Source of the DNA: Halalkalibacterium halodurans
Lineage (GTDB): Bacteria > Bacillota > Bacilli > Bacillales > Bacillaceae_D
Direction of reading: 5' to 3'
DNA: 32,000 nt
Assembly (NCBI RefSeq): GCF_004376175.1
Contig: NZ_SNUY01000014.1
Coordinates: 1-32,000, forward strand
In this document: positions 1-22,123 of the stretch, one piece after another
How positions within the stretch are numbered: the stretch's first letter is position 1
Layout of the letters: each line of letters opens with the position of its first letter
Notes under the pieces: model-generated
Seen by the model: only the letters and a program-made list of their open reading frames with translations
What the model was told of the DNA's origin: nothing
The model's database searches: none
Program-made: the position numbers and the translations under genes

Positions 1-47
1 TTTTTTCATGTATTTTGCTTAAACCCTACCGCGCTTTCGCTTGGTGG

Positions 48-99
48 CCTCCTCATCCAAGTAACGGAAATTTCCATTACTTGGATGAGGAGGTTTTTT
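48..99 (+). terminator. Orphan rho-independent terminator-like hairpin
   Basis: 17-nt perfect arms CCTCCTCATCCAAGTAA (48-64) and TTACTTGGATGAGGAGG (77-93). The loop contains the GGAAATTTCC palindrome. TTTTTT follows at 94-99. No + strand gene is visible upstream in the window. Confidence 0.55.
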
Positions 100-110
100 C
101 TTCTCCCACA

Positions 111-464
111 AACATTTTACTCATACATTTTTCGAAGGATGCGTATGACTTAATTTTTCGATATCCTTGGCCGGGAAATGTACGTGAAATTGTCAATATG
201 GTAGAACACGTGATTTATTTGGAAACGGGAGACCTTATCACGGCCGATAGTTTACCAGCCTATTTGAAAATAAAGGAAGGGAAAGCTACTTCTCAGCTGC
301 AAATAAACGTAGCCCCTCACGGTGAGGAGTCGTTTAAACAACAAGTTCTTCACCTGCTGGATGTTTATGGTCGGCATACGGAAGGAAAAAAACGAATTGC
401 GAAGGAGATGGGCATTAGCCTCCCAACACTTTACCGCAGGTTGAAAAAACTGAAAATTAGATAA
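111..464 (+). pseudogene. Sigma-54-dependent transcriptional activator, C-terminal fragment only
   Basis: FSKDAYDLIFRYPWPGNVREIVNMVEHVIYL matches the end of the AAA+ sigma-54 interaction domain (WPGNVREL-type motif). A C-terminal Fis-type HTH follows (KRIAKEMGISLPTLYRRLKKL). There is no Walker A/B or GAFTGA region and no plausible start where homology begins. The 5' part of the tracked ORF (15-110) reads through the terminator hairpin. Confidence 0.6.
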
Positions 465-643
465 ATATTGAGAATTATTGAGAAAAATCGATAAAATCAA
501 CAGTTCATCGACAATATTCGGTGTTTTTAAAAGTCGGATTCTCACAATCTTTATACAAATTTGTAAGATTTAAGTGTTTTATTCGAAAAAGATCGAGCGA
601 TAAATTCCCTTGGCTTAGGAATATTTATAAAAATTAGCAAAGT

Positions 644-659
644 TGGCACGAAACTTGCA
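644..659 (+). promoter_or_regulatory. Sigma-54 (-24/-12) promoter
   Basis: TGGCAC gaaac TTGCA is an exact match to TGGCAC-N5-TTGCA. It ends 28 nt before ATG 687, and RBS GAAGGGG lies at 673-679. The 12-bp palindrome TACAAATTTGTA (554-565) upstream is a possible activator site. Confidence 0.7.
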
Positions 660-686
660 AATATTTTTGATAGAAGGGGCGTAGAA

Positions 687-935
687 ATGAGTTGGTTCAT
701 ATCGAGAAAAGATATTGCTTATATTTCGAGAGGAGCTAAGCTACTCGGATGTGGAGGTGGTGGAGATACAAAGACTACCCAAAGGCTTCTAGAATCGATC
801 ACGAAGGAAGACGATCAAATTAACGTCTTGCAATATGAAGACCTTACAGAACAGGTTGTCGCTACAGTTTGCTTCGCCGGTTCTCCTATCCTTTATGAAG
901 AACAACTTCCTAGAGGCGATGAGGGGCAAATGGTT
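687..935 (+). pseudogene. DUF917-family (hydantoinase-associated) protein, N-terminal ~80 aa fragment
   Basis: ISRGAKLLGCGGGGDTKTT...ATVCFAGSPILYEEQLPRGDEG resembles the N-terminus of DUF917 proteins (GxGGGGD motif). Recognisable sequence stops near nt 930 and the frame runs into a stop at 998. Confidence 0.5.
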
Positions 936-936
936 T

Positions 937-1959
937 TTCAGGGAGAATGCAACCATTTTAAACGCCTCTGTCGTCAATGTGGCGCAGGCAACCGCTGAAG
1001 GCTTTGTCGCAGCTTTAAAGGAAGAAGGAATTGAGGCCAACGTTTTCTTTGGTGAAAACGATGGAACGTTAATGTCTGTTGAATACGCGAAGAAATACCC
1101 GATTTTAACGATTGCTTGCGGACCGACGAACAGCTTGCGAGGCGCTTCTTTTTTAACAGGAAAAGAGAATGCGATCGTCGTTGATGTCGGGGGGACAACG
1201 ACCGATATTGGTGTGCTCGCTCAATCCTTTCCACGTGAATCATCCCTCGCTGTAGAAATTGGCGGAGCCCGGACAAATTTTCGTATGCCGGATTTAGTGT
1301 CGATCGGTTTAGGTGGAGGGACGATCATCAGAGTGAATGAAACGGACGGGACTTTTACCATTGGTCCAGAAAGCGTGGGCTATCGGCTCCCAGAAAAAGG
1401 GCTCGTGTTTGGCGGTGACACATTGACGACAACAGATGTGGTCGTCGCCCTTGGCAGAGCCAATATCGGTGACCGTTCAAAAGTGGCACACTTAGACAAA
1501 GAGCTGCTTAGACGAATCTATGACCGAATGGTCGAGATGGTTGAAATGGCGGTCGATCAAATGAAAACGAGTAGTGGGGATGCTCCAGTCATTTTAGTCG
1601 GTGGTGGCAGTATTTTATTGCCTGATCAATTACGAGGTGCCTCCGAAGTGATGAAGCCTGAGCATTTAGGTGTTGCGAATGCTATTGGTGCGGCCATTGC
1701 TCAAGTAAGTGGACAAATTGAACGAGTGTTTTCCCTTGATGAGCGCGGGCGTGAGCAAACACTTGCGTATGCGAAGGACTTAGCAAGGGAAGAAGCGATA
1801 AAAGCAGGGGCAGATCCTAGTGATTTGACGATTGTTGACGTGGAAGATGTTCCACTCGCTTATTTGCCGGGAAACGCCACGCGAATAAGGGTGAAAGCAG
1901 CAGGACCATTAGGGAGTGCATCAGCTGAGCAGTACGAAAAGGGAAACGTCATTCTGTAA
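937..1959 (+). pseudogene. Hydantoinase/oxoprolinase A-family protein, C-terminal ~340 aa fragment, fused out of frame to the DUF917 stub
   Basis: From FRENATILNASVVNVAQATAEGF onward the sequence carries hydantoinase_A motifs (ACGPTNSLRGASFL, AIVVDVGGTTTDIGVL, VILVGGGSILLP). The N-terminal Hydant_A_N region is absent. The tracked Met at 835 lies in out-of-frame DUF917 sequence. Confidence 0.6.
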
Positions 1960-2180
1960 GACGTTTGCTTACATCTGCCGCTCTGGCTTTTTCGTTACAT
2001 TTTAACCCTTGCTAAATTGAATAAAGGAGCTGAAAAGACCTAGGCGCAAATTTTTACATGAGCCAGGTCTTTTTTACACTTAAAAAATGACGTGCTATCA
2101 AGGCTATATCCTATTTTGGCAGTTAGAGTAATCAACGGCTAGTCAAACTTGAAATAGGGCTAGCTGTATACCGTTATTTT

Positions 2181-2196
2181 TGTGAATTCTGTCACA
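2181..2196. promoter_or_regulatory. Crp/Fnr-family box TGTGA-N6-TCACA
   Basis: TGTGAattctgTCACA is a perfect palindromic match, extended to TTTTTGTGA/TCACAAAAA (2177-2200). Its centre (2188.5) lies 29.5 nt before a -10-like CATTAT (2218-2223). That is about -41.5 relative to a start near 2230, which is class II geometry. ATG of the downstream gene is at 2329. Confidence 0.4.
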
Positions 2197-2328
2197 AAAA
2201 TGCCATGTAGGGTATCTCATTATGGGTGATTTTTCGACAACAATCGATTAAAATAATCGTGTATGACCCATTGGTCAAAGATTATTGAACCATTGTTCGG
2301 ATGATCGCCCTTGAGGAGGAAAAGGCTT

Positions 2329-3084
2329 ATGACTAAATATGAACTAAATGTGAAACAATTAAAAATACTGAAAACAGAACTTACACGTTTTATGATGTCT
2401 TATAAATTTGCTTTACAAGAGCTTAACACAAAGATAGATATCCTAAAGCAGGAATTTCAATACATTCATGATTACAATCCGATTGAGCATGTGTCATCAA
2501 GGGTCAAATCACCGGAGAGTATTGTTAATAAGATTCAGCGGAGAGGCAACGACTTTACTCTGGAGTCCATTCGGGAAAATGTTCGTGATATTGCAGGGAT
2601 TCGCATTACATGTTCTTTTGAATCGGATATTTATGCGCTCAGTGAACAATTAATGCAGCAACATGATATTACGGTCGTTGAAACAAAAGATTACATTAAA
2701 AACCCGAAACCAAATGGGTACCGCAGTCTCCATTTAATTTTGTCGATTCCGATTTTCATGTCAGACCGGGTGCAGGATGTCTATGTAGAAGTACAAATCC
2801 GAACGATCGCCATGGATTTCTGGGCAAGCTTAGAACATAAAATTTACTACAAATACAACAAAAATGTGCCTGAGCATTTGTTAAAAGAATTGAAGGATGC
2901 AGCAGAATCAGCTGCGCTCTTAGATCAAAAAATGGAGAAGATTCAGCATGAAATGAGTGCCTGGAAGGATCGGCAAACCGATGAGGATGAGCGCTACGAA
3001 TTAATCATTGATAATGAAACCTTTAGTCTTCCGAATGAATCGATTTTAGTTAATTTGATGCCCCCGTCTTCATTGCGTGATTAA
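2329..3084 (+). CDS. relP: Small alarmone synthetase (GTP pyrophosphokinase, RelA/SpoT-domain), RelP/YwaC-like
   Basis: ATG 2329 lies 8 nt after AGGAGGA (2314-2320); the tracked TTG 2311 overlaps the RBS. Diagnostic stretches: YKFALQELNTK, NPIEHVSSRVKSPESIVNKIQRRG, DIAGIRITC, KPNGYRSLHL, EVQIRTIAMDFWASLEHKIYYKY. From memory these are closer to B. subtilis YwaC than to YjbM. Confidence 0.85.
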   Translation: MTKYELNVKQLKILKTELTRFMMSYKFALQELNTKIDILKQEFQYIHDYNPIEHVSSRVKSPESIVNKIQRRGNDFTLESIRENVRDIAGIRITCSFESDIYALSEQLMQQHDITVVETKDYIKNPKPNGYRSLHLILSIPIFMSDRVQDVYVEVQIRTIAMDFWASLEHKIYYKYNKNVPEHLLKELKDAAESAALLDQKMEKIQHEMSAWKDRQTDEDERYELIIDNETFSLPNESILVNLMPPSSLRD

Positions 3085-3117
3085 TCCTTCAAATTTTTTT
3101 GCTGAGGAGGAATACTT

Positions 3118-3567
3118 ATGTTGCGAAAGCAAGACAAAATGACACTTCATGTGAAAAAAGAATTTGAGCGAATGCAGCTTCAGCTTGCACCGATTATTCG
3201 TAAAAGCACGATTTATAGCTTCATCTCCATCCCGCTTCTTTCGTTTGCGCTATTCAATTTATTCCTCTTTTTGTTTAATGGAGAGTTGCCTATACAGGAC
3301 TTTACGATTGCGATTGCCATTTTCTGTTTAATGGGCGCATTCGGATTGGCCCTTTTTAAAGAGTCGATGCATAAAAACAAAGAATTTATCGACTCCAGTA
3401 TTGCCTATATTAAAGACCGGATTGCCACAAGCTCTTATGTTCCAGACCAAGCAAAGGAGCGGTATCTTCATGATATTAAAGAAGATCCGAGGCAAGTATT
3501 TTGGGTTTTTCAGCAGTTTCTTGAGCAGGAGGAGCGGATAAAGCGGTTGGATGAGGTTGATGACTAA
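3118..3567 (+). CDS. Hypothetical small membrane protein (two predicted TM helices)
   Basis: ATG lies 7 nt after GAGGAGG. Hydrophobic segments are IYSFISIPLLSFALFNLFLFLF and FTIAIAIFCLMGAFGLALF. The C-terminus is acidic. The gene is tightly packed between relP and the TetR gene. Confidence 0.6.
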   Translation: MLRKQDKMTLHVKKEFERMQLQLAPIIRKSTIYSFISIPLLSFALFNLFLFLFNGELPIQDFTIAIAIFCLMGAFGLALFKESMHKNKEFIDSSIAYIKDRIATSSYVPDQAKERYLHDIKEDPRQVFWVFQQFLEQEERIKRLDEVDD

Positions 3568-3585
3568 CGAGAGAGAGGGAGAAAC

Positions 3586-4455
3586 ATGCGAGAGAAAGAA
3601 CGATTGATTATCGAACAAGCGATGAGGCTCTTTATTGAAAAAGGCTTTGTCGCAACTTCAATTCAAGAGATTGCTTCAGCATGTGGAATGGCGAAAGGCT
3701 CACTATATTCTTATTTTTCATCAAAGGAGGAAATCCTTCTAGCAGCGTTACGAATGTACTTTCAAGCCGTTCAGTCAGAGCTGATGTCGTTCCAACAGTT
3801 GGGGAAAGATCCGAGGGAGGTTTTTTGCCAGCAGCTTTCTTATCTATTAGACCATATTTCAAACCACAAGGAGTTTGTCGATGATCAACTGTTACAACAA
3901 AGTGTGAGGATCCCTGAAAAAGTACGAAAATTTTTAATCACAAAGCACTATGAACTTCATGCCTTTTATTTGCATGGGCTTCAAGCGATTTACGGGCATG
4001 AGGCAAAGCCGTATCTTCATGATTTAGCAATCATGCTAGATGGCATGTTACGATCATATATAAAAATTCTCATTGTCAATGAACAGACATTCTCAAGTGA
4101 TGATTTAGTCGCATTTCTCTTGAATAGAGTTGATGATCTATATCAAGGTCTATGTGCAAATGAAGAAAAACCGATGATGTCTGAAATTCAAATGCACCGA
4201 ATGTCCAAAAAGGTTCGTGCTTTCGTAAAAGAGGATGAGGATCAGATTGTCCAGTTGATTCACGGAATGAAGCAAACGCTATCGACCACCCCAAATAGCG
4301 ATGACGCGCTTTTGTCGATCCACGTGATTGAAGAAGAGTTGGAGAATGATCATCCTCGTTATCCCGTCATCAAAGGAATGCTTTCTAACTTAGTGGGAAT
4401 AAAAGAACTTGAATCGTTCGTAAAAGAATTAAAGCGACAAATGGCATTAAAGTAG
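3586..4455 (+). CDS. TetR/AcrR-family transcriptional regulator (long, 289 aa)
   Basis: N-terminal TetR HTH: IIEQAMRLFIEKGFVATSIQEIASACGMAKGSLYSYFSSKEEIL. RBS is GAGAGGGAG. The start lies 19 nt after the previous stop. Confidence 0.85.
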   Translation: MREKERLIIEQAMRLFIEKGFVATSIQEIASACGMAKGSLYSYFSSKEEILLAALRMYFQAVQSELMSFQQLGKDPREVFCQQLSYLLDHISNHKEFVDDQLLQQSVRIPEKVRKFLITKHYELHAFYLHGLQAIYGHEAKPYLHDLAIMLDGMLRSYIKILIVNEQTFSSDDLVAFLLNRVDDLYQGLCANEEKPMMSEIQMHRMSKKVRAFVKEDEDQIVQLIHGMKQTLSTTPNSDDALLSIHVIEEELENDHPRYPVIKGMLSNLVGIKELESFVKELKRQMALK

Positions 4456-4490
4456 TCAAGGGGTTGTCCCAGAAGCACCTTGAACAATAA

Positions 4491-4528
4491 AATCGGGTGA
4501 ACCGTTTATGCGGTTCACCCGATTTTTG
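4491..4528 (+). terminator. Rho-independent terminator of the relP-membrane-tetR unit
   Basis: 14-bp perfect stem AATCGGGTGAACCG (4491-4504) / CGGTTCACCCGATT (4511-4524) with loop TTTATG and a following T run. A residues precede it, so it could act in both directions. Confidence 0.85.
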
Positions 4529-4562
4529 TCCTTCGATCGATGATCCGCTGCCGCTCGTTTCC

Positions 4563-4740
4563 TTAAGGTTTATGGGCAAGGGCCACAAGCCCAAGCTCTA
4601 TGTACGCATTTTCCTTCCCGCGAAGATGCAGCCTGCGGAAGACGAGGTTTTGTTTGACATGACCAAGTGCGCTCTCCACATCCGTTTTTCTTTTTTGGTA
4701 GAGTGTTGGCCTTCTTCGCTTTTCAGTTTTGATGTTGCTT
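4563..4740 (-). pseudogene. DDE transposase C-terminal remnant (IS1182/IS5-like)
   Basis: The reverse strand reads IKTEKRRRPTLYQKRKTDVESALGHVKQNLVFRRLHLRGKENAYIELGLVALAHKP-stop. This matches the typical C-terminal end of IS1182/IS5-type transposases (R..VE..FG.lK....fRR..lRG). A stop lies upstream and possible further homology (to ~4800) is in another frame. No N-terminal part is present. Confidence 0.6.
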
Positions 4741-4980
4741 CACTTTGAGTTCCTCATACACCGGGTTAAAGTAGATTTGGTCATGCCCCTTTAAGTAGGC
4801 AGCTAAAATGCTCTATCAGTGTGTGTTAATTATTTATGGAGAAAGTTGGATTCTTCATTACTTTACGATTCTACGATCTAATTAATAGGATTTTTAACTT
4901 CTGTAATTAGTATAAGAGGCTAACTTAATTTTATAAAATTAAACCTAAAATTTAAAAGAAAAACAAAATATTGACATAAA

Positions 4981-5009
4981 TATTCTGTGTTATTATAATA
5001 CACAATAGA
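4981..5009 (+). promoter_or_regulatory. Consensus sigma-A promoter (copy A) with overlapping cre-like box
   Basis: TTGACA (4981-4986), 17-nt spacer, TATAAT (5004-5009), with an A-rich UP-like tract upstream. AGAAAGCGTTTACA (5017-5030) fits the cre consensus TGNAANCGNWNNCW except at the first base. It points into the 3' end of the dead IS4 element. Confidence 0.6.
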
Positions 5010-5086
5010 AAGCGTTTACACTCGGGTATTCATCATTTTAGCCGTCTTTCAGATAAAAATTAAGAAGGAGGTTCCACGAAATTCAA

Positions 5087-5100
5087 TGCAAACGTTTGCT
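5087..5100. promoter_or_regulatory. cre / LacI-family operator (copy A)
   Basis: TGCAAACGTTTGCT matches TGNAANCGNWNNCW at every specified position. It contains the perfect 12-bp palindrome GCAAACGTTTGC (5088-5099). Confidence 0.5.
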
Positions 5101-5126
5101 CTTTCGATTAATTTAATCATTGGATG

Positions 5127-6420
5127 AATAATTACTCAAATTTCGCAGACCAAATTAGGCAGGTAAGCCCTGATGTAACGAGTTAAACCTGCAATCCATT
5201 GTGATAGTTGATTTTTAAGTAATTGTTGTGTTTGTTTGTTCGTCTTTTTCAAGACATCTTGAAGAAGATCGATTAATTGCTGTAATGCGACAGCCCAATC
5301 AAGTTCATTTACTTCGTCACACAGGTCATAAAATAAACCACCTAATGTCCGTTCATCTGTGTGGCAACGATTTTACCACGAGAGAACAATGTATGTAGTA
5401 AAGACGATCGTTGTATGGCTGATAAGTAAGTCATACGAGCGGCCTTGAAACTCTTTTTATAAGCGAAGAAGGGACTTTGTCGTTTTAAAGAGCACTTCAA
5501 TATCCTAACGAATGCCGTAAATACGGACCATTTCTTGTTTAGATAGTGTGCAATCTGTGCTTAAAATGGCAAGCCATTCACTCTTCTTATTACGGTTTTG
5601 CACGAACACGACTTTAACGGGTACGCCATTGGCCATCGTCGTCGTGATTGAACGAAGAAGCCCTTTCTTTCCTTGAAGTGGAGCGGCAGATTGATAGAGT
5701 TGTTTTAAGGAAAGCATTTGTCCATTCACGTTGTAGCGCTGCTTGGCATTCTTCACCATCCCAATCACATCAAGCCCTTGGACAACGCTCGTTCAATCAT
5801 CGCTGGAATTTGATCAGGTGCAGACTGTAGCGCTTCTGTACGGCGTTTATAACCCGAACATCGCTTATCAACTTCTTCATTGATTCCGTTAATGGAAGAC
5901 GTTTTTGAGCTTAGTAAAAAGAAGTCAATCGGCATGAAAGTATGCCCATCTGACCAGCCTAATGTAAGCATTCGAAACCCTTTATAAAATCGCATGTTCA
6001 AAGAAGCATGATCAAAACAACGGGCAAGTAATTCAACATTTTTTACTGCCGATTACGATCAAACGTAGGGTCGTCAATAAATGAAGCACTTTTGAGCGGT
6101 CTATTGATGTAAGAATGCTGACTTTTTGTATGGTAGCTGTACTAAAGTGTAAAAGAAATTTCCTCCAAGCAAACTTGGAATGATTTAAAAAGAGATAGAC
6201 GGTATCTTTGCTTGGCGAACAATCATTCTTTTTCGATGTGACAAGGGCAAACCAATTTTTTTGATGGAAAATCAGACAAAAAACAAGCCGAAACAAATAG
6301 GTGCATGAAAACCCAAAGCTTTTTCGAATACCTGCGTGACATAGGTGTTTCGACACTTGTAATTTAGAGAATGTTCATTTGGTAGTTGCTCATTTGAGTG
6401 TTTTTCTCTTATCATAGAGA
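5127..6420 (-). mobile_element. Degenerate IS4-family insertion sequence (boundaries approximate)
   Basis: Transposase reading frames lie on the minus strand. The copy A / copy B alignment breaks at ~5126. A possible imperfect terminal inverted repeat pairs ATGAATAATTACTCAAATT (5127-5145) with 6361-6378 (about 13 of 19 by eye), so the right end could instead be ~6378. Confidence 0.6.
5136..6417 (-). pseudogene. IS4-family DDE transposase, inactivated (one nonsense codon and at least two frameshifts)
   Basis: It is split into ORFs 6356-6033, 6001-5765 and 5768-5505, plus an untracked tail to the stop at 5136. The minus strand reads IYGIR-TAG-DIEVLFKTTKS, the IS4 Y-(2)-R-(3)-E-(6)-K signature. 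TAG (plus strand 5505-5507) sits where Trp is expected. FKGFRMLTLGWSDGHTFMPIDF is also typical of IS4. Confidence 0.75.
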
Positions 6421-6624
6421 AGGCACCTCTTCTTTGTGGTAATGGTTTCTAGTCAATTCCACTATAACAAAGAATCAGGTGGCTTTTTCTGTTTAAAAGC
6501 AACTTGTCAAGCAACCTATCGGATCGGACTTAAAGCTTTGATCGATCTAAAACAGATGACTTTGAAGGTACGAAAGTTAAGTTAATTAACTATAAAACCC
6601 AAAAAAATTTAAAAAAACAAAATA

Positions 6625-6653
6625 TTGACACAAATCTTCTGTGCTATTATAAT
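6625..6653 (+). promoter_or_regulatory. Consensus sigma-A promoter (copy B), candidate promoter of the NRPS operon
   Basis: TTGACA (6625-6630), 17-nt spacer, TATAAT (6648-6653), with an A-rich upstream tract. The inverted repeat TTCTGT-N11-ACAGAA spans the -10. The cre-like box AGAAATCGTTTACA lies at 6661-6674. It faces the NRPS genes, ~400 nt upstream of ATG 7059, with no canonical terminator between. Confidence 0.55.
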
Positions 6654-6765
6654 ACAGAATAGAAATCGTTTACACTAAAAAGTTTACACTCTAAAATTCG
6701 TGATTTCAACCATTTTCTAGCTGAAAATAAAGAAAGGGGTTTTTATGGATTTTTGAGCAAACGTT

Positions 6766-6779
6766 TGCGCTTTAAATTG
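6766..6779. promoter_or_regulatory. cre / LacI-family operator (copy B)
   Basis: AGCAAACGTTTGCG contains the same perfect palindrome GCAAACGTTTGC (6767-6778). The outermost consensus bases differ. Confidence 0.45.
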
Positions 6780-6811
6780 ATGAAATAACTTGGTCCACCG
6801 CCCAAACTTTC

Positions 6812-6976
6812 GGTTGCTTGTGATGATCATGTTTTCTCTTTCATACCGAAAAGAATTGGGACATTAACGCGATTCAGGTCGTTACGTCTCTCCAGAAGTA
6901 TGATATCTAATTAGACCTGGTTGAACTGTATGAGTACCAAACGCTAGAAGAATTGGCTAAGCGTATTGCTAATCAT
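6812..6976 (+). pseudogene. Relic of an NRPS peptidyl-carrier (T) domain
   Basis: The frame from 6854 reads NWDINAIQVVTSLQKYDI-stop-LDLVELYEYQTLEELAKRIANH. Compare GGDSILALQIVAKAQEIGIRVSTKDVFEYQTIEELASSVL in the second synthetase. The Ppant Ser is missing, TAA lies in frame at 6908-6910, and the preceding DDHVFSF is in another frame. Confidence 0.6.
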
Positions 6977-6982
6977 ATAAAG

Positions 6983-7014
6983 ACTCTTCCTAAACAATAT
7001 TGTTTAGGAAGAGT
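6983..7014. repeat. 32-bp perfect palindrome / stem-loop just upstream of the first NRPS RBS
   Basis: ACTCTTCCTAAACAA (6983-6997), ta, TTGTTTAGGAAGAGT (7000-7014). No U-run follows. It ends 32 nt before the RBS GGGGGGAG (7046-7053). Confidence 0.8.
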
Positions 7015-7058
7015 GACTAGGTAAAAGGATACGTAAATTGAGATCGGGGGGAGTACCT

Positions 7059-10000
7059 ATGACAGGTCAGTATACCGAAGAAGTGAGAAAAAAGAGAGAA
7101 ATCCTACAGCAGTATTTCCAATCGAACGAACAATCGGCAAACCGATTGTATCCGTTATCGTCTGGACAGGAGACGCTTTGGTGCTCTCACTATATTTCAG
7201 AAAATCAGAATCATTTAAATATGTTTTCAGCATGGAAGCTCCCACATCATGTAAGAATAGACATGTTAGAAAAAGCATTTCAATACCTAGTAGATAAATA
7301 TGAAACACTTAGAACAAATTACATGACTGTGAAAGGTTCTCCATACCAGTATATCCATGAAAATCATAAGGTGAACTTTAGATATGAGGATTTATCCCAT
7401 CTGAGTAGGGTGGAATTTGATAAAAGGTTATCAGGGGAAGCACATGCATCTTTCGACATTGAGAAGGACCCATTATTAAAGATTCGCGTATATAAAAACC
7501 ATGCTGATGAGCAGATTCTTCTTTTTAATGTTCATCATTTAGCAATTGATGGCTGGTCCATTACGATTCTGCTTCAAGAGCTAGGTGAAATGTATAGCAG
7601 GCTAGTATCGGCAGCTTCCCCAATTCGTACAGTGGTTCATGATACATACAGGCAGTTTGTACGTGAGGATAAGCAGAGATTAAAGGAGCAGGGGAAGGCT
7701 GATAATCCTATTAGGAAGTATTGGTCTGAAAGAATACGTGAAGGGGGAGGACTACAACCAGTAAATCTCCCTTCATTAAAAAATACGGGTCATTCCTATA
7801 AAGGGGAGCCCATCTTTTCTAGAATTGAGGAGGATCTGTGTACAAGGTTATATAAGCTTGCTAAAGACAATAAAACGACTGTTTATAATGTATTATTGGC
7901 CAGCTTACATACGTTGCTATACCGGTACACTGGTCAAGAGAACATCTGGGTATCTACGCCTTTTTCGAGAAGGGGAGACGCTCGATGTTTTGACAGTGTA
8001 GGTTATTACGTAAATACATTACATATTCATGGCCGGTTTCATCAGGAAGTAACATTTCATGATATGCTCGCCCAAATATCAAATAGAGTAAAAGAAGTAT
8101 TCAAATACCAAGACATATCCAACTCATTTTTTACAGGTAATGAGGGTTACGCACAGGGGAATACGAATGTTATCTTCAGCTTTCAGAACTTAAATGAGTT
8201 AAAAGAAAGCGGGTTAAGTCTAGTCTTTCTAGGGATAGAAGGGGCAAAAGGGAACGTAGGGCCACTTCAAATCGAGGTGTACCCTTTAAAGAGACGTGTC
8301 GCTCAGTTTGAAGTAGAACTTGAGGTGGTTGAGCACGGCAAAGAGATGTATTTTAGGCTACTCTATGATCCAGAAAAATACGATGCCCATATCATGCAAA
8401 GGATTTGCTCTCATTATGTCAATCTATTATCGGCCATCACTAGTGATCAGCACAGACGAATAACAGATTACCAGTTCTTAAATGAATCTGATGTTGTTGA
8501 ACAACTTCATCAATACAATCATTCAGAGCTAATCAGGCCTAGCGAAAGTAATACCATTCTGCAGCTAATCGAAGAGGTTGCTCTAGTAAAGCCGAATGCT
8601 ATTGCTGTGGTAAGGGGACAAGACTCTATTACGTATACTGAAATTTTGCAACAGGCAGAAATATTGGCTAATAACTTACATTTACTAGGCATCGAGTCTG
8701 AGGATCGCGTAGGCCTCTGTATGAATACGAGTGCAGATCTGATGATCGGTATAGTAGGGATATTAAAAGCGGGAGCGGTATATGTACCATTAGACCCTGC
8801 CTATCCTGCTGGACGGATAGATTATATGATCAACGATAGTGACATTTCATTGATCATTACGGATCAAAGTGTTTCAGCACTAAACGATGTAGGGGCAAGG
8901 AAAGTTTTTCTTCAAGACCTGCTAATAGATCAAGCAGCACCACAAAGAAAAGTTGGAATTCAGTCGAACCAGCTGGCGTACATGATCTATACATCAGGGT
9001 CTACAGGTAAACCGAAGGGGGTTATGGTAAGCCATGGGAACTTATATGCGTCCACATACGCAAGAAGATTCGCATATGAAGAAGATAGACCATGCCGATT
9101 CATACTGCTATCCTCTATTTCCTTCGATAGCTCATTAGTCGGAATATTTTGGACACTGAGTATTGGGGGGACAATCATAATACCGGAAATCAGAGATTTG
9201 CTAGATATCAACGAATTAATAAAAGAAATATCAAACCATAAAGCAACACATTTTCTGAGTGTCCCATCTTTAGCACATGTGTTATTGAGCAGAGCACATC
9301 CAGAGAAAATAAGGAGCTTGGAAACGATCATTGTTGCAGGAGAGCAGTTCCCAAGCAAGTTGCAAGCGTATCAACAGGACAAATACCCCAATCTGAAGAT
9401 CTATAACGAGTATGGTCCAACAGAAGGGACCGTTTGGGGAAGTGTACATCGTTTAAATGATATAACTTATCCGATAGTCCCGATCGGCAAGCCAGCGAAG
9501 CATTGCAAGCTATATATTTTTGATGATGCTTTGAATCTGGTACCTAAAGGAGTTGTTGGCGAACTATTTATTGCTGGATCAGGAGTAACAAGAGGATATA
9601 TCAATCAGCCGAGAATGACTGCTGAGCGCTTTATCCCTAATCCATACGGAGATGGTGAAAGACTTTATCGGACAGGTGACTTAGCCAAATATAACCATGA
9701 TGGAACGATTCAGTTTATCGGTAGAAAAGATAATCAAATTAAAGTAAACGGTTTTAGAATTGAATTAGGTGAGATAGAAGCAACATATGAAAGACATCCA
9801 GTCATACAGAAGGCTGTAGTCATCAACAAAAAAGACCAAGGTGCACAGATAGTTGCCTTTATTAAATGCTCTGACCATTTATCACAGGAGCAGTTAAAAG
9901 AGTACGGCTCAAAGCATCTGCCTCATTATCTGATCCCGCACTACTTTGTAAGCGTTGAGGAGTACCCATTATCACAGAACGGTAAGATAGATCGGAAACG

Positions 10001-11720
10001 GCTCAGAGAGTGGGAGATAGATAGAATAGAAACAGACACCGTACTCCCTAGAAATGAAGTGGAAAGAAAACTGGTGGACATTTTTAAACAAGTGCTACGG
10101 ATCGAACAAATAGGGGTTAACGATAACTTTTTTGAAATGGGTGGAGATTCTATCATAGCCATCCAGATTGCATCAAAAGCTAGTGAAGAAGGTTTAACAC
10201 TTAAACCTAAGGATATTTTTGAAAGCAGGACGATTGCTAGGATTGCACAACAAGTATTAAACAATAGTCAGACTGTGTATGAAGAATCATTAGATATAAA
10301 TGGAGACGTTCCGCTTACTCCTATTCAACAATGGTTTTTTGAACAAAAATTTAACTACCCTAACCATTGGAATCAAGCAATACATCTAAAAATAGATAAG
10401 ACACTACCGTTTGTAATGATTAAGGAAGCTATGGAGGCTGTCATCGGGCAGCATGAAGCGCTTCACATGCGCTTTATGTATAAGGAAGGCGAATGGATTC
10501 AGAAGTACATGCCAGATCATAAATCAGTCCAAATCATTAATATCAAGACAAATCATACTCATCCAAATGCGATGAACAGTACGCAGGATGTTGCTACCAG
10601 CATAGGTAGTTTACAACAGGCGCTTGATTTGCAAGAAGGGCCAACAGTGCTTGCTGCATTGCTCGAAAATGATAAAGACAGTCTAAACAACGATTTCATC
10701 ATCATTATTCATCACTTGCTCGTGGATATTGTTTCGTGGCAGATCATTATGACAGATTTTGAGAGAATACTAAATAAAATGATAGAAAAAGAAAAAATAG
10801 ATATACAGCATAAAACAGCATCATACAAACGCTGGTCAACCCATTTAATAGAATCGCTTCCACTAGTACTGAGTGAGAGTAGTTATTGGAATAGAGTGAA
10901 CGACGCTGTAGCAGTATACGGAGGATCAGAAACAATTACAGGATCAGAAGGAAGTACAGTGAAAATGGAAATGCCTCTAGGTACAGCTGAAACAGAAGAC
11001 CTATTACAGGAGGTTCCTAAGTACTTTGGGACACAGCTGAACGAAGTTGTACTAGCTGCAATAGTGCTTTCTTTAAAGGCTTATACACAACGGGATGGCA
11101 TCGTCATAGATATAGAACATCACGGTAGAGTGCCATTTAATGAAGAGGCAATAGATGTATCAAAAACAGTTGGATGGTTCACTAATATCTACCCGATTTA
11201 TCTTGACTTACAGCAGATTGTCCAACCGAATGGAGATTTGTTAAAACATGTGAAGAATAAGATGCGTGAAGTTCCACATTCAGGGCTTGGCTACGGCATG
11301 TTGAGGTATCTGCAAGCGAAGGGTGCTTGTGATGAATCACAGTCTGAAATGCCGAGGGCTCGGTTTAGTTATAACTTTTTAGGTCAGATAGACCATACAT
11401 TCTTTCATTCTCGTTACTTCACATTTTCTGGATACCTTAGTGAATCTGTTCGTGATCCAAATGAAAAACGCCCTTATTTTCTTGACTTTGAACCGTACAT
11501 TTCTGCAGGAAATTTTGTACTAAGAATCGGCTATAGTAAGGACCTTGTCCCAGATTCCCGAATCCAGCGCCTAGCGGAAGAGACGATTGAACACCTAAAG
11601 TCTTTAATTACTTTATGTAAATCATCAGAAGAAATCGGTTACGTCTCTGGGGACTTTCCTAATGCTAATATTGGCCAAAAAGAGTTAGAAAAGTTCTTAT
11701 CTCATTTGAAAAATCACTAA
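7059..11720 (+). CDS. Non-ribosomal peptide synthetase 1, module 1: C-A-T-E
   Basis: ATG 7059 lies 5 nt after GGGGGGAG; the tracked TTG 7038 is less likely.
- C: YPLSSGQETLW, HHLAIDGWS (nt 7533).
- A: LAYMIYTSGSTGKPKG (8973-9020), NEYGPTE, YRTGDLA, GRKDNQIKVNGFRIE, NGKIDRK.
- T: FFEMGGDSI (Ser codon 10150-10152).
- E: PLTPIQQWFF, HHLLVDIVSW (nt 10710). Confidence 0.95.
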   Translation: MTGQYTEEVRKKREILQQYFQSNEQSANRLYPLSSGQETLWCSHYISENQNHLNMFSAWKLPHHVRIDMLEKAFQYLVDKYETLRTNYMTVKGSPYQYIHENHKVNFRYEDLSHLSRVEFDKRLSGEAHASFDIEKDPLLKIRVYKNHADEQILLFNVHHLAIDGWSITILLQELGEMYSRLVSAASPIRTVVHDTYRQFVREDKQRLKEQGKADNPIRKYWSERIREGGGLQPVNLPSLKNTGHSYKGEPIFSRIEEDLCTRLYKLAKDNKTTVYNVLLASLHTLLYRYTGQENIWVSTPFSRRGDARCFDSVGYYVNTLHIHGRFHQEVTFHDMLAQISNRVKEVFKYQDISNSFFTGNEGYAQGNTNVIFSFQNLNELKESGLSLVFLGIEGAKGNVGPLQIEVYPLKRRVAQFEVELEVVEHGKEMYFRLLYDPEKYDAHIMQRICSHYVNLLSAITSDQHRRITDYQFLNESDVVEQLHQYNHSELIRPSESNTILQLIEEVALVKPNAIAVVRGQDSITYTEILQQAEILANNLHLLGIESEDRVGLCMNTSADLMIGIVGILKAGAVYVPLDPAYPAGRIDYMINDSDISLIITDQSVSALNDVGARKVFLQDLLIDQAAPQRKVGIQSNQLAYMIYTSGSTGKPKGVMVSHGNLYASTYARRFAYEEDRPCRFILLSSISFDSSLVGIFWTLSIGGTIIIPEIRDLLDINELIKEISNHKATHFLSVPSLAHVLLSRAHPEKIRSLETIIVAGEQFPSKLQAYQQDKYPNLKIYNEYGPTEGTVWGSVHRLNDITYPIVPIGKPAKHCKLYIFDDALNLVPKGVVGELFIAGSGVTRGYINQPRMTAERFIPNPYGDGERLYRTGDLAKYNHDGTIQFIGRKDNQIKVNGFRIELGEIEATYERHPVIQKAVVINKKDQGAQIVAFIKCSDHLSQEQLKEYGSKHLPHYLIPHYFVSVEEYPLSQNGKIDRKRLREWEIDRIETDTVLPRNEVERKLVDIFKQVLRIEQIGVNDNFFEMGGDSIIAIQIASKASEEGLTLKPKDIFESRTIARIAQQVLNNSQTVYEESLDINGDVPLTPIQQWFFEQKFNYPNHWNQAIHLKIDKTLPFVMIKEAMEAVIGQHEALHMRFMYKEGEWIQKYMPDHKSVQIINIKTNHTHPNAMNSTQDVATSIGSLQQALDLQEGPTVLAALLENDKDSLNNDFIIIIHHLLVDIVSWQIIMTDFERILNKMIEKEKIDIQHKTASYKRWSTHLIESLPLVLSESSYWNRVNDAVAVYGGSETITGSEGSTVKMEMPLGTAETEDLLQEVPKYFGTQLNEVVLAAIVLSLKAYTQRDGIVIDIEHHGRVPFNEEAIDVSKTVGWFTNIYPIYLDLQQIVQPNGDLLKHVKNKMREVPHSGLGYGMLRYLQAKGACDESQSEMPRARFSYNFLGQIDHTFFHSRYFTFSGYLSESVRDPNEKRPYFLDFEPYISAGNFVLRIGYSKDLVPDSRIQRLAEETIEHLKSLITLCKSSEEIGYVSGDFPNANIGQKELEKFLSHLKNH

Positions 11721-14700
11721 ATGAAAAGCATGGGGGGATATACATAGATATTCGGAACATAGAAAACATATACACCTGCTCACCGATACAAGAAGGGATG
11801 CTATTTCACACATTACATCAACCTGAATCAGGTTTATATGTAGAACAACTAAGCTTTCAAATGATCGGTAAAGTAGAACAAGCAATGTTTGAAAAAGCTT
11901 GGCAGGAAACGATTCAAATGCACTCTGCGTTACGCACCACTTTTCACTGGAAAGAGAGCGATCGAATATTACAGGTTGTTCATAAGCAGATAGATATACG
12001 GGTCAACTATATTGATATACGGCACCATTCGATAGATGAAGGGAAAAATATAGAGTCAATAATAGAAGAAATTGCGGGAAAGTTAAAAAGAGAAGGTTTT
12101 GATTTATCGAAAGGTCCTTTAATGAAACTACATCTGCTAAGAATAGGCGATAATGAGTATCACTTTATTTGGACTTTTCATCATTTACTGCTTGATGGGT
12201 GGTCCATGGGACGAGTGATGCAAGATATTTTGAAGCTTTATGAGGGGTATGTACAAAAAAATCCTGTATTCATTCCTGCCCCTGAACAGTATGAGAGCTA
12301 TATTTCGTGGCTCAACAACCAGGATATGGATGGGGCTAAGCAATTCTGGCTTAATAAGCTGGAAGGGTTTGAGAATATCTGTCCTTTTAGTGCAGGGGAT
12401 TCATTTAGTAAAAGAAAAACACAGCAAGACGGGTACCAGGATCTCTGGCTTTCAGAAACAGTAAAAGAACAATTGGTAAATCTCACGCATGAACATGAGA
12501 TTACAATATTTTCCTTGCTACAGACAGCTTGGATTCTGCTGATTAATGGTAAATATAATATAGAGGATATCGTTATTGGAAACGTCGTTTCTGGAAGACC
12601 CCATGATTTAAAAGGGGCTGAGAACATTGTAGGTCCTTTTATTAATACACTACCGCTAAGGGCAAAGGTGAAAGCGAATGATAGGATACTTACACTCATT
12701 AAGCAAGTGCAACAAGAACAGTTAGAAATCAGTTCCTATGCTTTTACCCCCTTAAAAGACATTCATAAAGTATGTAATTTACAGGGCAACCAATCTTTGT
12801 TTGATAGTATTGTAGTCTTTGAGAATTATCCTTTAGATCAGAGTATGTTTTCAAATGAGGCTTTAGGATTCAGGATTAACAATTTCAGTATAGAGGAAAA
12901 GTCGAACTTTCCTTTAAGCTTAGCGATTATACCGTATGACAATCAGGTCATTCTGCGCTTACATTATGATTCGGAAGTGATGACCTCAGAGCAAACAAAC
13001 AAGATTCTGGAACAAGTTGAGAATATTGTTCAGGAGATCATTCTGGATATAACACGTACAGTAGATTCAATCAGTCTGCTGTCGCCTGAAGATAGAGACA
13101 AGAGCATAATGCAGTCTGAAACAACAGAATGTATCGGAGTAACAGAAAGTGCTCCTCAGGTATCGAATGTGCTACACCAACGGTTTGAGCATCAAGCAGC
13201 ACGTAGGCCTGACAAAATAGCGCTTAGAACAGAGTCTGATCTCTTATCCTATGAACAGTTAAATTGTAAAGCAGAACATATTGCCTCCCTTTTACTCTCT
13301 AAGGGGCTGAAGTTTGAAGAGCGAGTAGCCGTACTATTGAATAGGTCACTGGAATCAATCGTTTCCATGCTAGGCATTCTTAAAGCAGGCGGTGTCTACG
13401 TCCCTCTTGATGTAAACTTACCTCCAGAACGTTTGGAGTATGTGATTCAGGATGCAAATATTCGCACAATGATCACCGAGGAACCGTTCACAGAAAAATA
13501 CAAAGATCAAGTGCTAGATCTGATCAATATCCACCATTCATCAAAGACTCAACACTTAGAGGCAATAGACAGGCCACCAGTTGTAGCCGATCAATTGGCG
13601 TACATTATGTACACCTCAGGTTCTACTGGGCTACCTAAGGGAGTAGCTGTTACACACGAGGCAGCAGCTTTGCATTATACTGCTTTTCAACAGCAGTTTC
13701 AATTGAGTGAAGATGACGTTGTTTTGCAATTTAGTGCAATGACCTTCGATCCATCCATTGAGCAGGTTTTTCCAACACTTTTCAGTGGTGGAGAGGTCTT
13801 CGTTCGGGGGGAGGATGTTTGGGATGCACAACACTTTGTTCACACGCTAGAAGAATACGCAATTACGGTCGCGAATTTACCGACGGCGTACTTTTATGAG
13901 GTAGTGAATAGCCTTATGATCACAACTCAGTGCTTGAGCCTTCCAGCGTTACGTTTTTTAGCGATCGGGGGGGATAAGCTTTCATATAAACATGTTCAGC
14001 TATGGAATCGACTCAATCAAGGAAAGACACAATTGTTTAACTTTTACGGCCCAACAGAAACTGTAACAACGAGCACATTCTATTTAGTCCAACCGAGTAA
14101 TCTGTTAGATGAGATCAGTACGATTCCAATTGGTATACCTATGAGCGGTAGAAAGTTATATATTCTTGACACGTATGGTAGACCAGTACCGTCAGGGGAA
14201 AAGGGCGAGCTATGCATAGGAGGCAATATCATCGCACGTGGTTATGTTAATAAACCGAGACTGACTGCCCAACGATTTATTCCCGACCCTTTCAGTACAG
14301 AAGAAGGAGCCTTAATGTACAGGACAGGCGACATTGTTCGCCTTAATGAACACGGAGACCTAGAATATATAGGGCGAAATGACGATCAGGTAAAAATACG
14401 TGGTTATCGAATAGAAATAGGAGAAATAGAAAAAGCGCTGCTTACAATTCGTGAAGTTGAAGACGTAGCGGTCATTGTACATGATCAAGATACTCGTTCA
14501 AAAACATTAGTAGCATACGTGGTTGTTGCTGGCGATATGGACAGGCAAAGGATAAAAAGGAAGTTAAAAGATAAGCTCCCAGAATATATGCTACCAAAAC
14601 AAATCATGTTTTTGGACCGCTTGCCATTAAATACGAATGGAAAAGTGGATAGAAAATCGCTACCACTTGTTCATCTTCAAGATGAAGAGTATAAAGAGAA

Positions 14701-17700
14701 CGATGAAAACGCTGCACCAAAAACGGAAACGGAAAAAGCGTTGGTGAACATTTGGAAGAGTGTTCTACAGGTACAGCAAGTTAGCATTAAAGATAATTTT
14801 TTTGATCTAGGTGGCGACTCAATTCTAGCTTTACAAATTGTAGCGAAAGCACAGGAAATTGGAATCCGAGTGAGTACAAAGGATGTATTTGAGTATCAGA
14901 CGATAGAAGAGTTAGCATCATCAGTCTTAACGGGGGCTTATCCAGAAGTAGCTGCCACAACGATACAAAAACACGTGGTTGGGAGCGATCGGGGTAAATC
15001 TGGGGAGAATATTCCACTTACACCAATACAATCATGGTTTTTTGAACAGCAGTTTGATCAGCATCATCACTGGAATCAATCAGTCCTATTGCAGGTAAAA
15101 GAGCGTATAAACACTCATGCGTTAACTGAAGCATTAGAAGCAGTAGTAGATCATCATGAAGCTTTAAAATATCGTTATCACCAAAAGGATGGACAATGGA
15201 TTCAACAAGTGACAGACCGTGGAAAGACGTATGCAATAGATGTCATAAAACTAAACGATAACAGCACAACCAGACAGATTCAGGTTAAAGAAGAAATATT
15301 GCGAGTACAAACGAGCTTAAATATTGAAAATGGTCCAATAATGAAAGTGCTTTACTTAGAACACACAAACACTTCGCTATGTAGGCTGTTTATAACAATC
15401 CACCACTTGGTCGTTGATAGCGTTTCATGGCGTATCCTACTTGAGGATTTACTACGACTATATAGACAAGCTTTGCAGTCCAAACAACTAGATATTCCTG
15501 AGAGGACATCGAGCTTTAAGGATTGGTCTTACACACTCAGTACATACGCTCAGCAACATATTTCACATGATGAGCAAGAATACTGGGAGAAGAAAGCGAG
15601 CATTGAATACAAGCTCCCAGTCGATTTTAGAAACGATTCAAACAACACAGAAGGTTCTCTAGACAAAATAACGTTGACCTTTACTAGAGAAGAGACTGAA
15701 TCGCTGACGAGAACGCTGCATACCACCTTAGGAGCAAAAGCGCATGAAATATTAATAGCAGCACTCATGATCTCTCTGCAGCAATGGTCAGACACACGTC
15801 AAATCAAAATAGACATCGAAGGACATGGAAGAGAAAATATTGACCCTACCATAAATTTGAGCAAAACGGTGGGCTGGTTTACAACGCTCTTTCCAGTTAC
15901 GGTCAATTTTGATCAACAGTACTCCGTGCTTCAGAAAGTACAAAGGGCCGTCCAAGAACTGCGCTCAATTCCTATGAATGGAATCGGTTACGGTCTACTC
16001 AAGTATATGAGTGGATCAATATTGAATGAGAGGCCAGCCGATGTCAGCTTTAACTACTTAGGGCATATTCATACGGAACTACACACAGATGCTCCATTTA
16101 TGATGTCATCTGAAAGTATTGAGCCTCTCAGACATGCTGAAGCTAAAAGAACATATTTGCTAGATATAGAAGGGGGGATCTTCGACGGCCAGTTAAAACT
16201 TGATTGGATGTTCAGTAAGAACGTTCATCAGAAGTCTACAATGATAAATCTGACAAATGAATTTAACCAAGTGATAAAAGAATGTGTGAGTATTGGCCAA
16301 CAGTTAAAGGGATACAAGCATCTTCCAAAGGATTTTCCTACAGCAGTACTATCACTGGAGGACTGGAAAATCGTCAATGAATTAGAGGGAAATATAGAAG
16401 ACTTATATTCGTTGTCCCCGATCCAAGAAGGCATGCTTTTCCATTCATTATTACAGCCTGGCACGGGTGTATACGTTCAGCAAATGGCATTTAAGATAAA
16501 AGGAGAGGCATTCATAGAGCGGTTTATGCAATCTTGGGAATATGTGATGAACCAACATCCGATATTAAGAACGATTTTTAGATGGGAAGGCTTTGAAAAG
16601 CCAGTACAGATCGTCAAGGCTAAAGCTAGTGTTCACGTTGATATTCTCGATTGGACAGATCGTCGATTCAGTTCAGATTTTAAAGTACAGGATGAATTGG
16701 GGAAATTGTGTAAAAAACTTAGGGAAAGCACTGTCGATATTTCCAAGGATAAACTTGTTTGCTTTACATTCGTAAAGCTAGAGTCAAATGAGTTCTTCTT
16801 TATATGGAACTATCATCACATGCTCTTAGACGGCTGGTCAATGCCAACCGTTTTGAGTCAGGTGTGTGAGGTTTATACGAAATTGTTACACCAAGAACCA
16901 TTACCAAAATTAGAGTCACCACCTTTTAGAGTATTTATAGACTGGTATTTAAAGCAGGACCACTCAACAGCAGAAACCTTTTGGAAAACGATGCTAGACG
17001 GATATCAACATACCACATACTTACCGATCAAGCAGGTTGATCCTGTTGGTGGGAGGAGGATAGAGGAGATATCAGGGCAAACACATGAAGAAATGACATT
17101 ACAATTGTCTAGTGCAAGTTTTCGTCGTCTCAAACAATTAGCGACTAAAAAGAGAGTTACTTTGTATAGTTTAATTCAAACAGCTTGGAGCATCCTACTT
17201 CATTATGCTAGCAAAAAGGAAGATCTTATATTCGGCTCTGTATACTCAGGAAGACCTGCATCCATTAAAGGTATAGAGGATATGGTTGGTATGTTTATTA
17301 ACACGTTACCAATACGTGTAAAAATTGAAGCGGACCAAACACTTAACAACCTACTACAAAATGCTCATGCACTACAAATGAAGGTAAAGGAGTATGAACA
17401 CACCCCACTTGTAGACATCAAGAAATGGAGCGGAATCCAAACAAGAGGGGAGTTGTTTGACACGTGTGTGATCTATGCAAATTTCCCTAACGTCATGTCT
17501 ACTGAGGGTACACAACAGATCATCGAAGGGGTAGAAGTCTCAGATATCACCGCTCTTGAACAAACGAATTATCCACTGACCTTGTCAGTGGTAACAAATG
17601 AAACCATGTCATTAGATGTGAACTTTGATACGTACAAAATTGATAAAGGCGATGTAGAGCACTACCTATTTATACTCGAACATATCCTGAACAACTTTGA

Positions 17701-17842: not shown

Positions 17843-17882
17843 AGGGATTGATATTTCATTATAACAAATCGAGAGGTGAAGT

Positions 17883-18914: not shown

Positions 18915-18925
18915 GGGGGATGAAC

Positions 18926-22099: not shown

Positions 22100-22123
22100 G
22101 GTGATATAAGTAGGTGAATGTAT

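Follow-up and report, generated by a model that had tools for sequence, protein, structure and literature searches.

The 32,000-nucleotide (nt) stretch of Halalkalibacterium halodurans DNA analysed here (contig NZ_SNUY01000014.1, positions 1 to 32,000; hereafter the window) carries a five-module non-ribosomal peptide synthetase (NRPS) cluster, NRPS1 to NRPS4, whose first gene is preceded by the remains of a carrier domain. We consider it very probable that positions 6863-7024 are the pseudogenised 3′ end (~53 codons) of a lost NRPS gene, and that the cluster arose by truncation of an ancestor resembling the cluster of its closest relative, L002, leaving a shortened assembly line in use. The relic is orthologous to the end of a gene that is intact in L002, the window lacks the genes that precede NRPS1 there, and all five modules that remain are whole. 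All statements about this genome refer to the 32-kb window. Domains are abbreviated C (condensation), A (adenylation), T (thiolation, or peptidyl carrier protein, PCP), E (epimerisation) and TE (thioesterase).

A carrier-domain relic orthologous to the end of a lost gene

Read in frame 2 of the window, with codons counted from 6863, the relic translates as INAIQVVTSLQKYDI*LDLVELYEYQTLEELAKRIANH, the asterisk marking an in-frame TAA. An earlier note, made from the sequence alone, had described a decayed T domain with such a stop close to NRPS1, and the profile search agreed with it: against Pfam PF00550 (PP-binding; gathering cutoff, 20.8 bits) the relic scored 21.8 bits (E=2.3e-4) with its flanks and 23.5 bits (E=6.7e-5) when trimmed, and its T-like helix ends ~81 nt 5′ of the NRPS1 ATG (7059). 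The match spans profile positions 32-67 of 67 only, that is, the part after the phosphopantetheine serine. The serine itself was said to have been lost, and indeed no GG(H/D)S motif was found in any frame of 6794-6866, nor was homology to the GGHSL region of the ortholog detected there. The segment has no start codon, no upstream coding sequence and no called open reading frame (ORF); lacking the serine motif, it is a relic and not a functional PP-binding member.

Two details of the earlier description have to be revised. A frameshifted 5′ half of the T domain was rejected, because three hand-built reconstructions in different frames of 6794-6862 raised the PP-binding score by at most 1.3 bits, and because local DNA alignment of 6794-6866 to the 5′ half of the L002 T domain did no better than shuffled sequence (13 versus 13.8 ± 2.0). 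By contrast, the 3′ half of the domain scored 67 (shuffles, 15.4 ± 2.1; ~25 standard deviations above). Homology to the ortholog begins at ~6863, at about the serine codon. Nor does the relic abut repeat copy B, one of two promoter-bearing repeats at the cluster border: the similarity of repeat B ends at ~6793, leaving ~69 nt that show no T-domain homology and no significant match to any locus. The span originally assigned to the relic, 6800-7160, does contain it, the demonstrable T half being 6863-6979, but also takes in the first 100 nt of the intact NRPS1.

The 1553-aa NRPS1 protein has a 100% identical counterpart among NCBI proteins of H. halodurans. A protein search with full-length NRPS1 recovered four orthologs of the same length and architecture (64%, 48%, 47% and 42% identity), and their contigs were retrieved. 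The full-length query was needed: a domain-only search missed the true orthologs, and its hits were all shorter than 870 amino acids (aa) and no more than 27% identical. A scan of genome contigs with the single protein of C1, the N-terminal C domain of NRPS1, found no relative, a second scan with an alignment found two loci only, and a scan of metagenome contigs found nothing. The closest syntenic cluster, whose NRPS1 is 64% identical to that of the window, lies in the Logan assemblies L002 and L003, where the gene order is type II thioesterase (TE-II), NRPS0, NRPS1 ortholog, NRPS2, TauD, NRPS3. The gene that we call NRPS0 encodes a 2098-aa C-A-T-C-A-T protein and ends 24 nt before the L002 NRPS1 ortholog.

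When NRPS0 was compared by tblastn with window positions 4400-7100, and then 1-7100, the relic was the single significant match: residues 2054-2092, the second half of the terminal T domain, are 65% identical to it at the aa level (E=2e-10). At the DNA level, blastn aligned L002 9848-9928 with window 6872-6952 (76.5% nt identity over 81 nt, E=3.6e-11), and further downstream the tail of the relic aligned with the end of the L002 gene, CCTAAACAAT standing opposite CCTGAACAAC. The orthologous genes flanking the relic share 64% aa and ~69% nt identity, a level that the aa identity of the relic matches, and the relic is syntenic with the 3′ end of NRPS0. The possibility that it was copied from one of the window's own T domains was rejected, the best identity being 40%. 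Because its identity equals that of the flanking genes, its position is syntenic and it is not a copy of a resident T domain, we regard the relic as what is left of a lost NRPS0-like gene, namely its orthologous 3′ end. The earlier note had postulated an upstream synthetase ending in a T domain, to be sought by tblastn in a syntenic cluster with intact upstream modules; NRPS0 stands intact in that place in L002/L003, and its last T domain is the ortholog of the relic. Over a 39-aa segment the relic has 25/39 identical residues versus 31/39 for intact T domains, at similar nt identity (67% versus 72-75%), and this greater divergence of the protein at similar nt divergence fits relaxed constraint.

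No pieces of the remainder of NRPS0, of TE-II, or of the ODC, GerA, phosphopantetheinyl transferase (PPTase), amine oxidase and ADI genes were found in the window. TE-II lies upstream of the synthetases in L002 and in the more distant relatives L004 and L005, the copies being 43-65% identical to each other; a PPTase gene is found upstream in L004 and L005, not in the examined part of L002, and amine-oxidase and ADI-like genes occur in some relatives. A search of a collection of 5.8 billion proteins with NRPS0 returned only NRPS0 itself and generic synthetases at ≤41% identity. As this collection holds H. halodurans NRPS1 but no NRPS0 ortholog above 41%, it gives no sign of a relocated NRPS0 copy. 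In addition, the NRPS1 proteins of the window and L002 alone share an N-terminal extension (KKRE[I/F][L/I][Q/R]QYFQS), which is absent from L004, L005, L006 and L008 and matches no Pfam family; it may be a leftover docking region for the lost synthetase.

The first condensation domain and the ancestral number of modules

The earlier note had suggested that C1 is an orphaned elongation domain rather than a genuine lipo-initiation starter C, and had proposed placing it among the Cstarter, LCL and DCL clades. Its catalytic motif is intact (HHLAIDGWS at residue 159, matching HHxxxDG), and C1 keeps the residues that are invariant across all eight aligned C domains. Among solved structures its best match, over the full length, was the LCL domain TycC5-6 (2jgp; 121 bits), compared with 27 bits for CDA-C1, and the RzmA starter C was unmatched at E≤1e-3. 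As a control, a query that we take to be the SrfAA starter C, its N-terminus alone checked against P0227, scored ~100 bits with each of the two starter structures. PDB entry 8f7f ('Surfactin synthetase') was discarded as a starter reference, because it is not SrfAA C1; the SrfAA C1 query reached only 41-44 bits with it.

A neighbour-joining tree (430 columns, 200 bootstraps) was built with references named by the NCBI (SrfAA C1, C2, C3 and E; TycB C1, C2, C3 and E), few of which are starters. The NRPS1-C1 orthologs formed one clade (100% bootstrap), and a group of LCL domains plus this clade excluded SrfAA Cstarter, DCL and E domains at 99%. The core LCL domains in turn excluded C1 at 95%; C1 sits on a long branch with 20-26% identity to the LCL references and carries a clade-specific insertion (LVFLGIEGAKG...). 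C1 is thus a distinct clade that is sister to LCL, and not a surfactin-type starter. It resembles the starter C subtype of lipopeptide synthetases, as defined by Rausch et al. 2007 (PMC1894796), in being the first domain of the window's line and in its intact catalytic motif, and differs from it in its place in the tree, in its poor or missing matches to the starter structures and in following a T domain in L002. To LCL it is linked by its best structural match, by the sister grouping and by an L002 donor T domain without E; it is set apart by its low identity, its long branch outside the core, its insertion and the fact that orthologs also occupy the first position.

C1 is the line's first domain in the window, L004, L005, L006 and L008, and not in L002/L003. 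In L002 the last domain of the donor protein is a T domain that has a GGHSL motif, with no E domain behind it, and from this arrangement C1 of L002 must act as an elongation C on the chain delivered by the NRPS0 T domain. The motif of the L002 C1 itself (10001-11560) reads HHLAIDVWS, a Gly to Val change; the window, L004, L005 and L008 keep Gly.

Four more distant clusters bear on which state is ancestral. L004/L007 (Metabacillus arenae), L005, L006 (a GTDB representative labelled Bacillus thuringiensis s1930) and L008 begin natively with the NRPS1 ortholog; no upstream synthetase or T relic was found in them, and their C1 domains keep HHxxxDG. The idea of an orphaned elongation C therefore holds only in part: C1 is not a surfactin-type starter and elongates in L002, but four clusters start natively with a C1 of its clade. 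Syntenic clusters beginning with this gene were part of what the earlier note had named as counting against its reading; these four do begin so, and L002/L003 do not.

To the alternative that these clusters invite we give a little less than an even chance, namely that five modules are ancestral, that NRPS0 was added in an ancestor which L002 and the window share, that the window has since gone back to the original state, and that C1 is a genuine, non-classical first-position C in a line that makes a normal, possibly N-acylated, pentapeptide. Besides the native five-module clusters and their preserved catalytic motif, NRPS0 itself speaks for it. Its N-terminal C is an ordinary LCL domain (369 bits to 2jgp) that pairs with its second C (82%); both are TycC-like and mutually closest, unlike the divergent rest of the cluster, which hints that NRPS0 is a duplicated, imported add-on. 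All NRPS0 relatives found are at ≤41% identity. Against it, the C1 clade splits into only two sister sub-clades, the window with L002 (100%) and L004 with L005 and L008 (96%), so that for the family a single gain of NRPS0 is as parsimonious as a single loss. Moreover, no acyl ligase, acyl carrier protein (ACP) or free-standing A-T donor that could serve a first-position C1 was seen in the examined flanks. The alternative still needs an event that lost the gene of the relic; it competes with the orphaned elongation C only, and not with the truncation. The window lineage lost NRPS0 in either case, whether seven or five modules were ancestral.

Probable loss of the upstream genes and the state of the remaining line

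Under the truncation that we favour, the ancestor of the window's cluster would have been a seven-module line like that of L002, in which the NRPS0 ortholog would hand a dipeptidyl chain from its C-terminal T domain, in trans, to the N-terminal C of NRPS1. At least 7 kb would have been removed or replaced, comprising the TE-II gene and NRPS0 as far as about the serine codon, halfway through its last T domain. The loss may have been driven by insertion sequence (IS) or repeat recombination, or may have occurred at the break-point of a horizontal transfer. The line would thereby have shrunk from seven modules to five, with a product two residues shorter, and C1 would now serve as the first domain, as its orthologs do in the five-module relatives. 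The coordinates of the relic, its surroundings and the surviving operon are listed in Table 1.

Table 1. Features of the left border and of the NRPS cluster, in order along the window
Feature	Position	Strand	Remarks
IS1182-family transposase gene, 3′ fragment	~4530-4700	-	NCBIfam NF033551 positions 438-480 of 488, E=7.5e-11
Repeat copy A	4920-5131	+	12/12 sigma-A promoter 4971-4999; GCAAACGTTTGC palindrome 5088-5099
IS4-family element, transposase pseudogene	5132-6560	-	Frameshifts and stops (six-frame translation)
Repeat copy B	6570-6793	+	~224 nt; GCAAACGTTTGC palindrome 6757-6768
Spacer between repeat B and relic	6794-6862		69 nt; contains the deletion or replacement junction
Relic, C-terminal half of T/PCP domain	6863-6979	+	Pfam and alignment to L002 NRPS0
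In-frame TAA nonsense codon inside relic	6908-6910	+	L002 ortholog has GAA (Glu) there
Degenerate C-terminal tail of lost gene	6980-7024	+	Runs to TAA 7022-7024; overlaps palindrome
Perfect 16+16 nt palindrome	6983-7014		Between relic and NRPS1 ribosome-binding site
NRPS1	7059-11720	+	C-A-T-E, 1553 aa; Pfam scans and ORF calls
NRPS1 N-terminal extension	7059-7145	+	~29 aa, core KKREILQQYFQS; alignment of NRPS1 orthologs
N-terminal C domain (C1) of NRPS1	7059-8600	+	Pfam Condensation; PDB scores; neighbour-joining tree
NRPS2	11798-17842	+	C-A-T-E-C; Pfam scans and ORF calls
TauD-family dioxygenase	17883-18914	+	Pfam scans and ORF calls
NRPS3	18920-22099	+	C*-A-T; Pfam scans and ORF calls
NRPS4	22118-29614	+	C-A-T-C-A-T-TE; Pfam scans and ORF calls
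ABC exporter	29631-31274		ORF after NRPS4 in operon
Surviving five-module line, NRPS1-NRPS4 and TauD	7059-29614	+	Reading frames all uninterrupted

The earlier note had the upstream synthetase replaced by a mosaic of promoter repeats and IS remnants. The surroundings are indeed such a mosaic and TE-II is gone, and the mechanism can only be put conditionally: the junction lies ~300 nt from the near end of the IS4 element (~6560), with repeat B and 69 nt between them. Since the junction is not at an IS end, a loss mediated by the IS remains an inference, and truncation during horizontal acquisition is equally open. The latter, in which only the 3′ part of a seven-module cluster was integrated at a break-point and nothing was deleted in place, we rate as less likely than not. 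Consistent with it, no relationship links the flanks of L002, L004 and L005 to the left flank of the window (sigma-54 regulator, hydantoinase-like gene, small alarmone synthetase, TetR), members of the family are few and scattered, the border holds IS remnants, and the L006 cluster stands beside FtsK/SpoIIIE and relaxase-type genes. On present data, however, it is inseparable from deletion in place, and in either event an upstream synthetase preceded NRPS1, in the donor if not here. In L006, positions 2617-4381 place the five-module cluster a few kb from FtsK/SpoIIIE-type and replication-relaxation genes, a neighbourhood which suggests that the cluster family travels on or beside a conjugative element.

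The remaining line was found without a single stop in ~22.5 kb of NRPS and TauD reading frames, and the intactness of its five modules makes it probable that the shortened line still works. The 53-codon relic already carries one stop, and an operon that had been neutral for as long a time would be expected to carry many disruptions. As the same C1 clade occurs in both positions, a working five-module line is plausible whichever way the change went. That the line is alive and that one C-domain clade serves both as an internal elongation C (L002) and as a first domain (window, L004-L008) is a stronger statement, which we advance tentatively and would not yet bet on. If it is true, the window and L002 are a natural before-and-after pair for the gain and loss of N-terminal modules, a recent transition is recorded in the relic and in the docking extension that was kept, and the donor tolerance of C1 could be exploited for engineering.

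Several points weigh against the truncation that we favour. The two sister sub-clades of C1 and the distance of the junction from the IS4 end have been described above. As only 32 kb of the genome was covered, a relocated partner gene, TE-II or PPTase elsewhere is possible. One stop in a 160-nt relic is a noisy estimate of age, and the activity of promoter B and of the shortened line is predicted. A more pessimistic version, which we think improbable, is that the truncated line is dead or crippled, C1 being an obligate elongation C without a donor in a young, decaying pseudocluster. The grouping of C1 with LCL and not with SrfAA Cstarter, its elongating role in L002, the missing TE-II, the equally missing PPTase of L004 and L005, and the IS debris at the border would all fit. 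On the other side stand the ~22.5 kb of intact NRPS and TauD frames next to a 160-nt relic that has already acquired a stop and lost its 5′ half, the use of the C1 clade as first domain in four other clusters, and a perfect predicted sigma-A promoter that faces the operon with no + strand terminator between. Of the product outcomes entertained at the outset (N-acylated, shortened or non-functional), the non-functional one is the least likely, since four distant clusters start natively with the C1 clade and keep its motif.

Two other origins of the relic fare much worse. Free-standing ACPs precede starter-C synthetases in some lipopeptide clusters, and the relic could in principle come from such a small gene (a DptF-like ACP feeding a starter C), given that only the last half of one carrier domain survives and does not itself show how large the lost gene was; this is very unlikely, because the one specific match of the relic, which is also its best, is to the T domain that ends a bimodular gene, in the syntenic position and 65% identical, as the flanking orthologs are, and because the N-terminal extension that NRPS1 shares with L002 points to an NRPS0 partner. 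That AT-rich intergenic DNA should resemble a carrier-domain helix by chance has a negligible probability and was ruled out by the tblastn, blastn and shuffle scores, even though the relic exceeds the Pfam gathering threshold by no more than ~1-3 bits and matches half of the model.

The truncation changes the product prediction: compared with the nearest relative, the first two residues and the editing thioesterase are lost, and for this reason the N-terminal C cannot be assumed to be a lipo-initiation domain. A search of the literature for this organism together with NRPS returned no record. Clusters cut short, with remnants and IS debris left behind, have been documented before, and the present case is no new principle. 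In non-toxic Planktothrix strains that lost mcy, fragments of mcyT and residues of insertion elements remain at the locus, according to the account of Christiansen et al. 2008 in PMC4349496. Both cases combine a large deletion, a pseudogene fragment at the junction and adjacent IS debris, recognised against intact clusters; however, nearly the whole mcy cluster is lost and the product stops, whereas the window lost two modules and TE-II and keeps five intact behind a strong predicted promoter. The IS-induced mechanism was argued there from several deletion types, whereas the junction in the window is not at an IS end. Set against such IS-induced deletion, the window has IS DNA at the site, and the deleted genes are intact at the same position in L002/L003. 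Natural deletion of modules can also give new peptides, as for nodularin from microcystin and, putatively, in the nostopeptolide and minutumamide pathways (PMC12184294). There too whole modules are gone, the remainder keeps working, and the new border retains docking regions and C domains; those deletions are internal and were inferred from phylogeny, whereas the one described here took a whole gene from the N-terminal end and left a physical relic. What is distinctive here is the N-terminal loss with an intact remainder, and the existence of comparators with seven modules and of others natively with five. As natural cases of NRPS module loss go, it is unusually clean, with a physical fossil, a seven-module comparator and several five-module ones, and such trios are useful for asking, in NRPS engineering, which junctions and C domains tolerate removal of upstream modules.

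The left border and atypical domains of the cluster

The genes 5′ of the cluster are unrelated to it: the C-terminus of a sigma-54 regulator, a hydantoinase-like gene, a small RelA/SpoT synthetase, a membrane protein and a TetR regulator. A non-coding mosaic of 2.6 kb separates the flanking genes on the TetR side from NRPS1. Just past the terminator hairpin of the TetR gene (4489-4526) lies the IS1182 fragment, a second IS scar at the cluster border. The reconstructed IS4 transposase scored 279 bits against NCBIfam NF049925 (cutoff, 250), and DNA related to this pseudogene was found on Firmicute plasmids; neither terminal inverted repeats nor target duplications of an IS could be defined at the border. 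Repeats A and B are direct repeats, 71-84% identical, that directly flank the IS4 pseudogene. Each of them also carries GTTTACACT motifs, and their GCAAACGTTTGC palindrome resembles a LacI-family or cre operator. No homology was found when repeats A and B and the spacer were compared with the promoter regions of related clusters and with plasmids.

Repeat B contains a predicted sigma-A promoter that matches the consensus at 12/12 positions (TTGACA-17-TATAAT, 6625-6653) and points at NRPS1. The five-module operon begins ~400 nt downstream of it, with no + strand terminator predicted between promoter B and NRPS1, and a search of 4400-7200 against Rfam found nothing meaningful, only terminator-hairpin noise at 4491-4546. 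In the palindrome that follows the relic, the left arm aligns with the final codons of NRPS0 and the right arm repeats the left one in inverted form; L002 has no such palindrome. RNA folding of 6960-7075 predicted a strong hairpin (-34.4 kcal/mol, z=-4.7), and no T-run follows the palindrome on the + strand. L001, an independent Logan assembly of the same strain, breaks exactly there. The palindrome could be an operator, an RNA structure or a mutational by-product.

The specificity codes of the A domains were read by alignment to GrsA, with the known codes of GrsA, SrfAA and TycB reproduced as controls. Modules 1 and 2 have the codes DSVLIAEVWK and DPENAGFTTK, which recur unchanged or almost unchanged in L002/L003, L004 and L005 (in L005, module 1 differs at one position). 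Module 3, the module associated with TauD, has the Glu-like code DAKNLGLSN-, module 4 the canonical Thr code DFWNIGMVHK and module 5 the Ser-like code DVWHISLVDK. The two modules lost from the window have DGVFSGEVIK and DGGCSGEVIK in L002.

NRPS2 ends with an extra C domain (HHMLLDGWS), which is followed by the free-standing TauD and then by NRPS3 (16800-20300). The C-like domain at the N-terminus of NRPS3 lacks the catalytic histidines, with CCSALNAD at the HHxxxDG site, and has a low score of 141-145 bits against Condensation. In β-hydroxy-Asp siderophore synthetases the arrangement is C-TauD-C-A(Asp)-PCP (PMC7100376). The window matches this order (C, TauD, C, A, T), but splits it over three genes; its A domain has the Glu-like code of module 3. 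The second C of NRPS4 (~25400-26800) falls in the DCL clade with 100% bootstrap, has CHLIFDGWS in place of the HH motif, and follows a T domain that has a GGDSI motif and no E domain; these features suggest a dual epimerisation/condensation-type or otherwise atypical domain.

Two possibly broken genes were also noted. In one of the near-identical Logan samples L002 (14689-20780) and L003 (14689-20781) the NRPS2 ortholog is split into ORFs of 124 aa and 1905 aa, and in the other it is an intact ORF of 2030 aa; the split is either a frameshift variant or an assembly error. In the window, the hydantoinase/oxoprolinase-like gene at 687-1959 consists of two overlapping ORFs in different frames (687-998 and 835-1959) and may be a frameshifted pseudogene or reflect a sequencing error.

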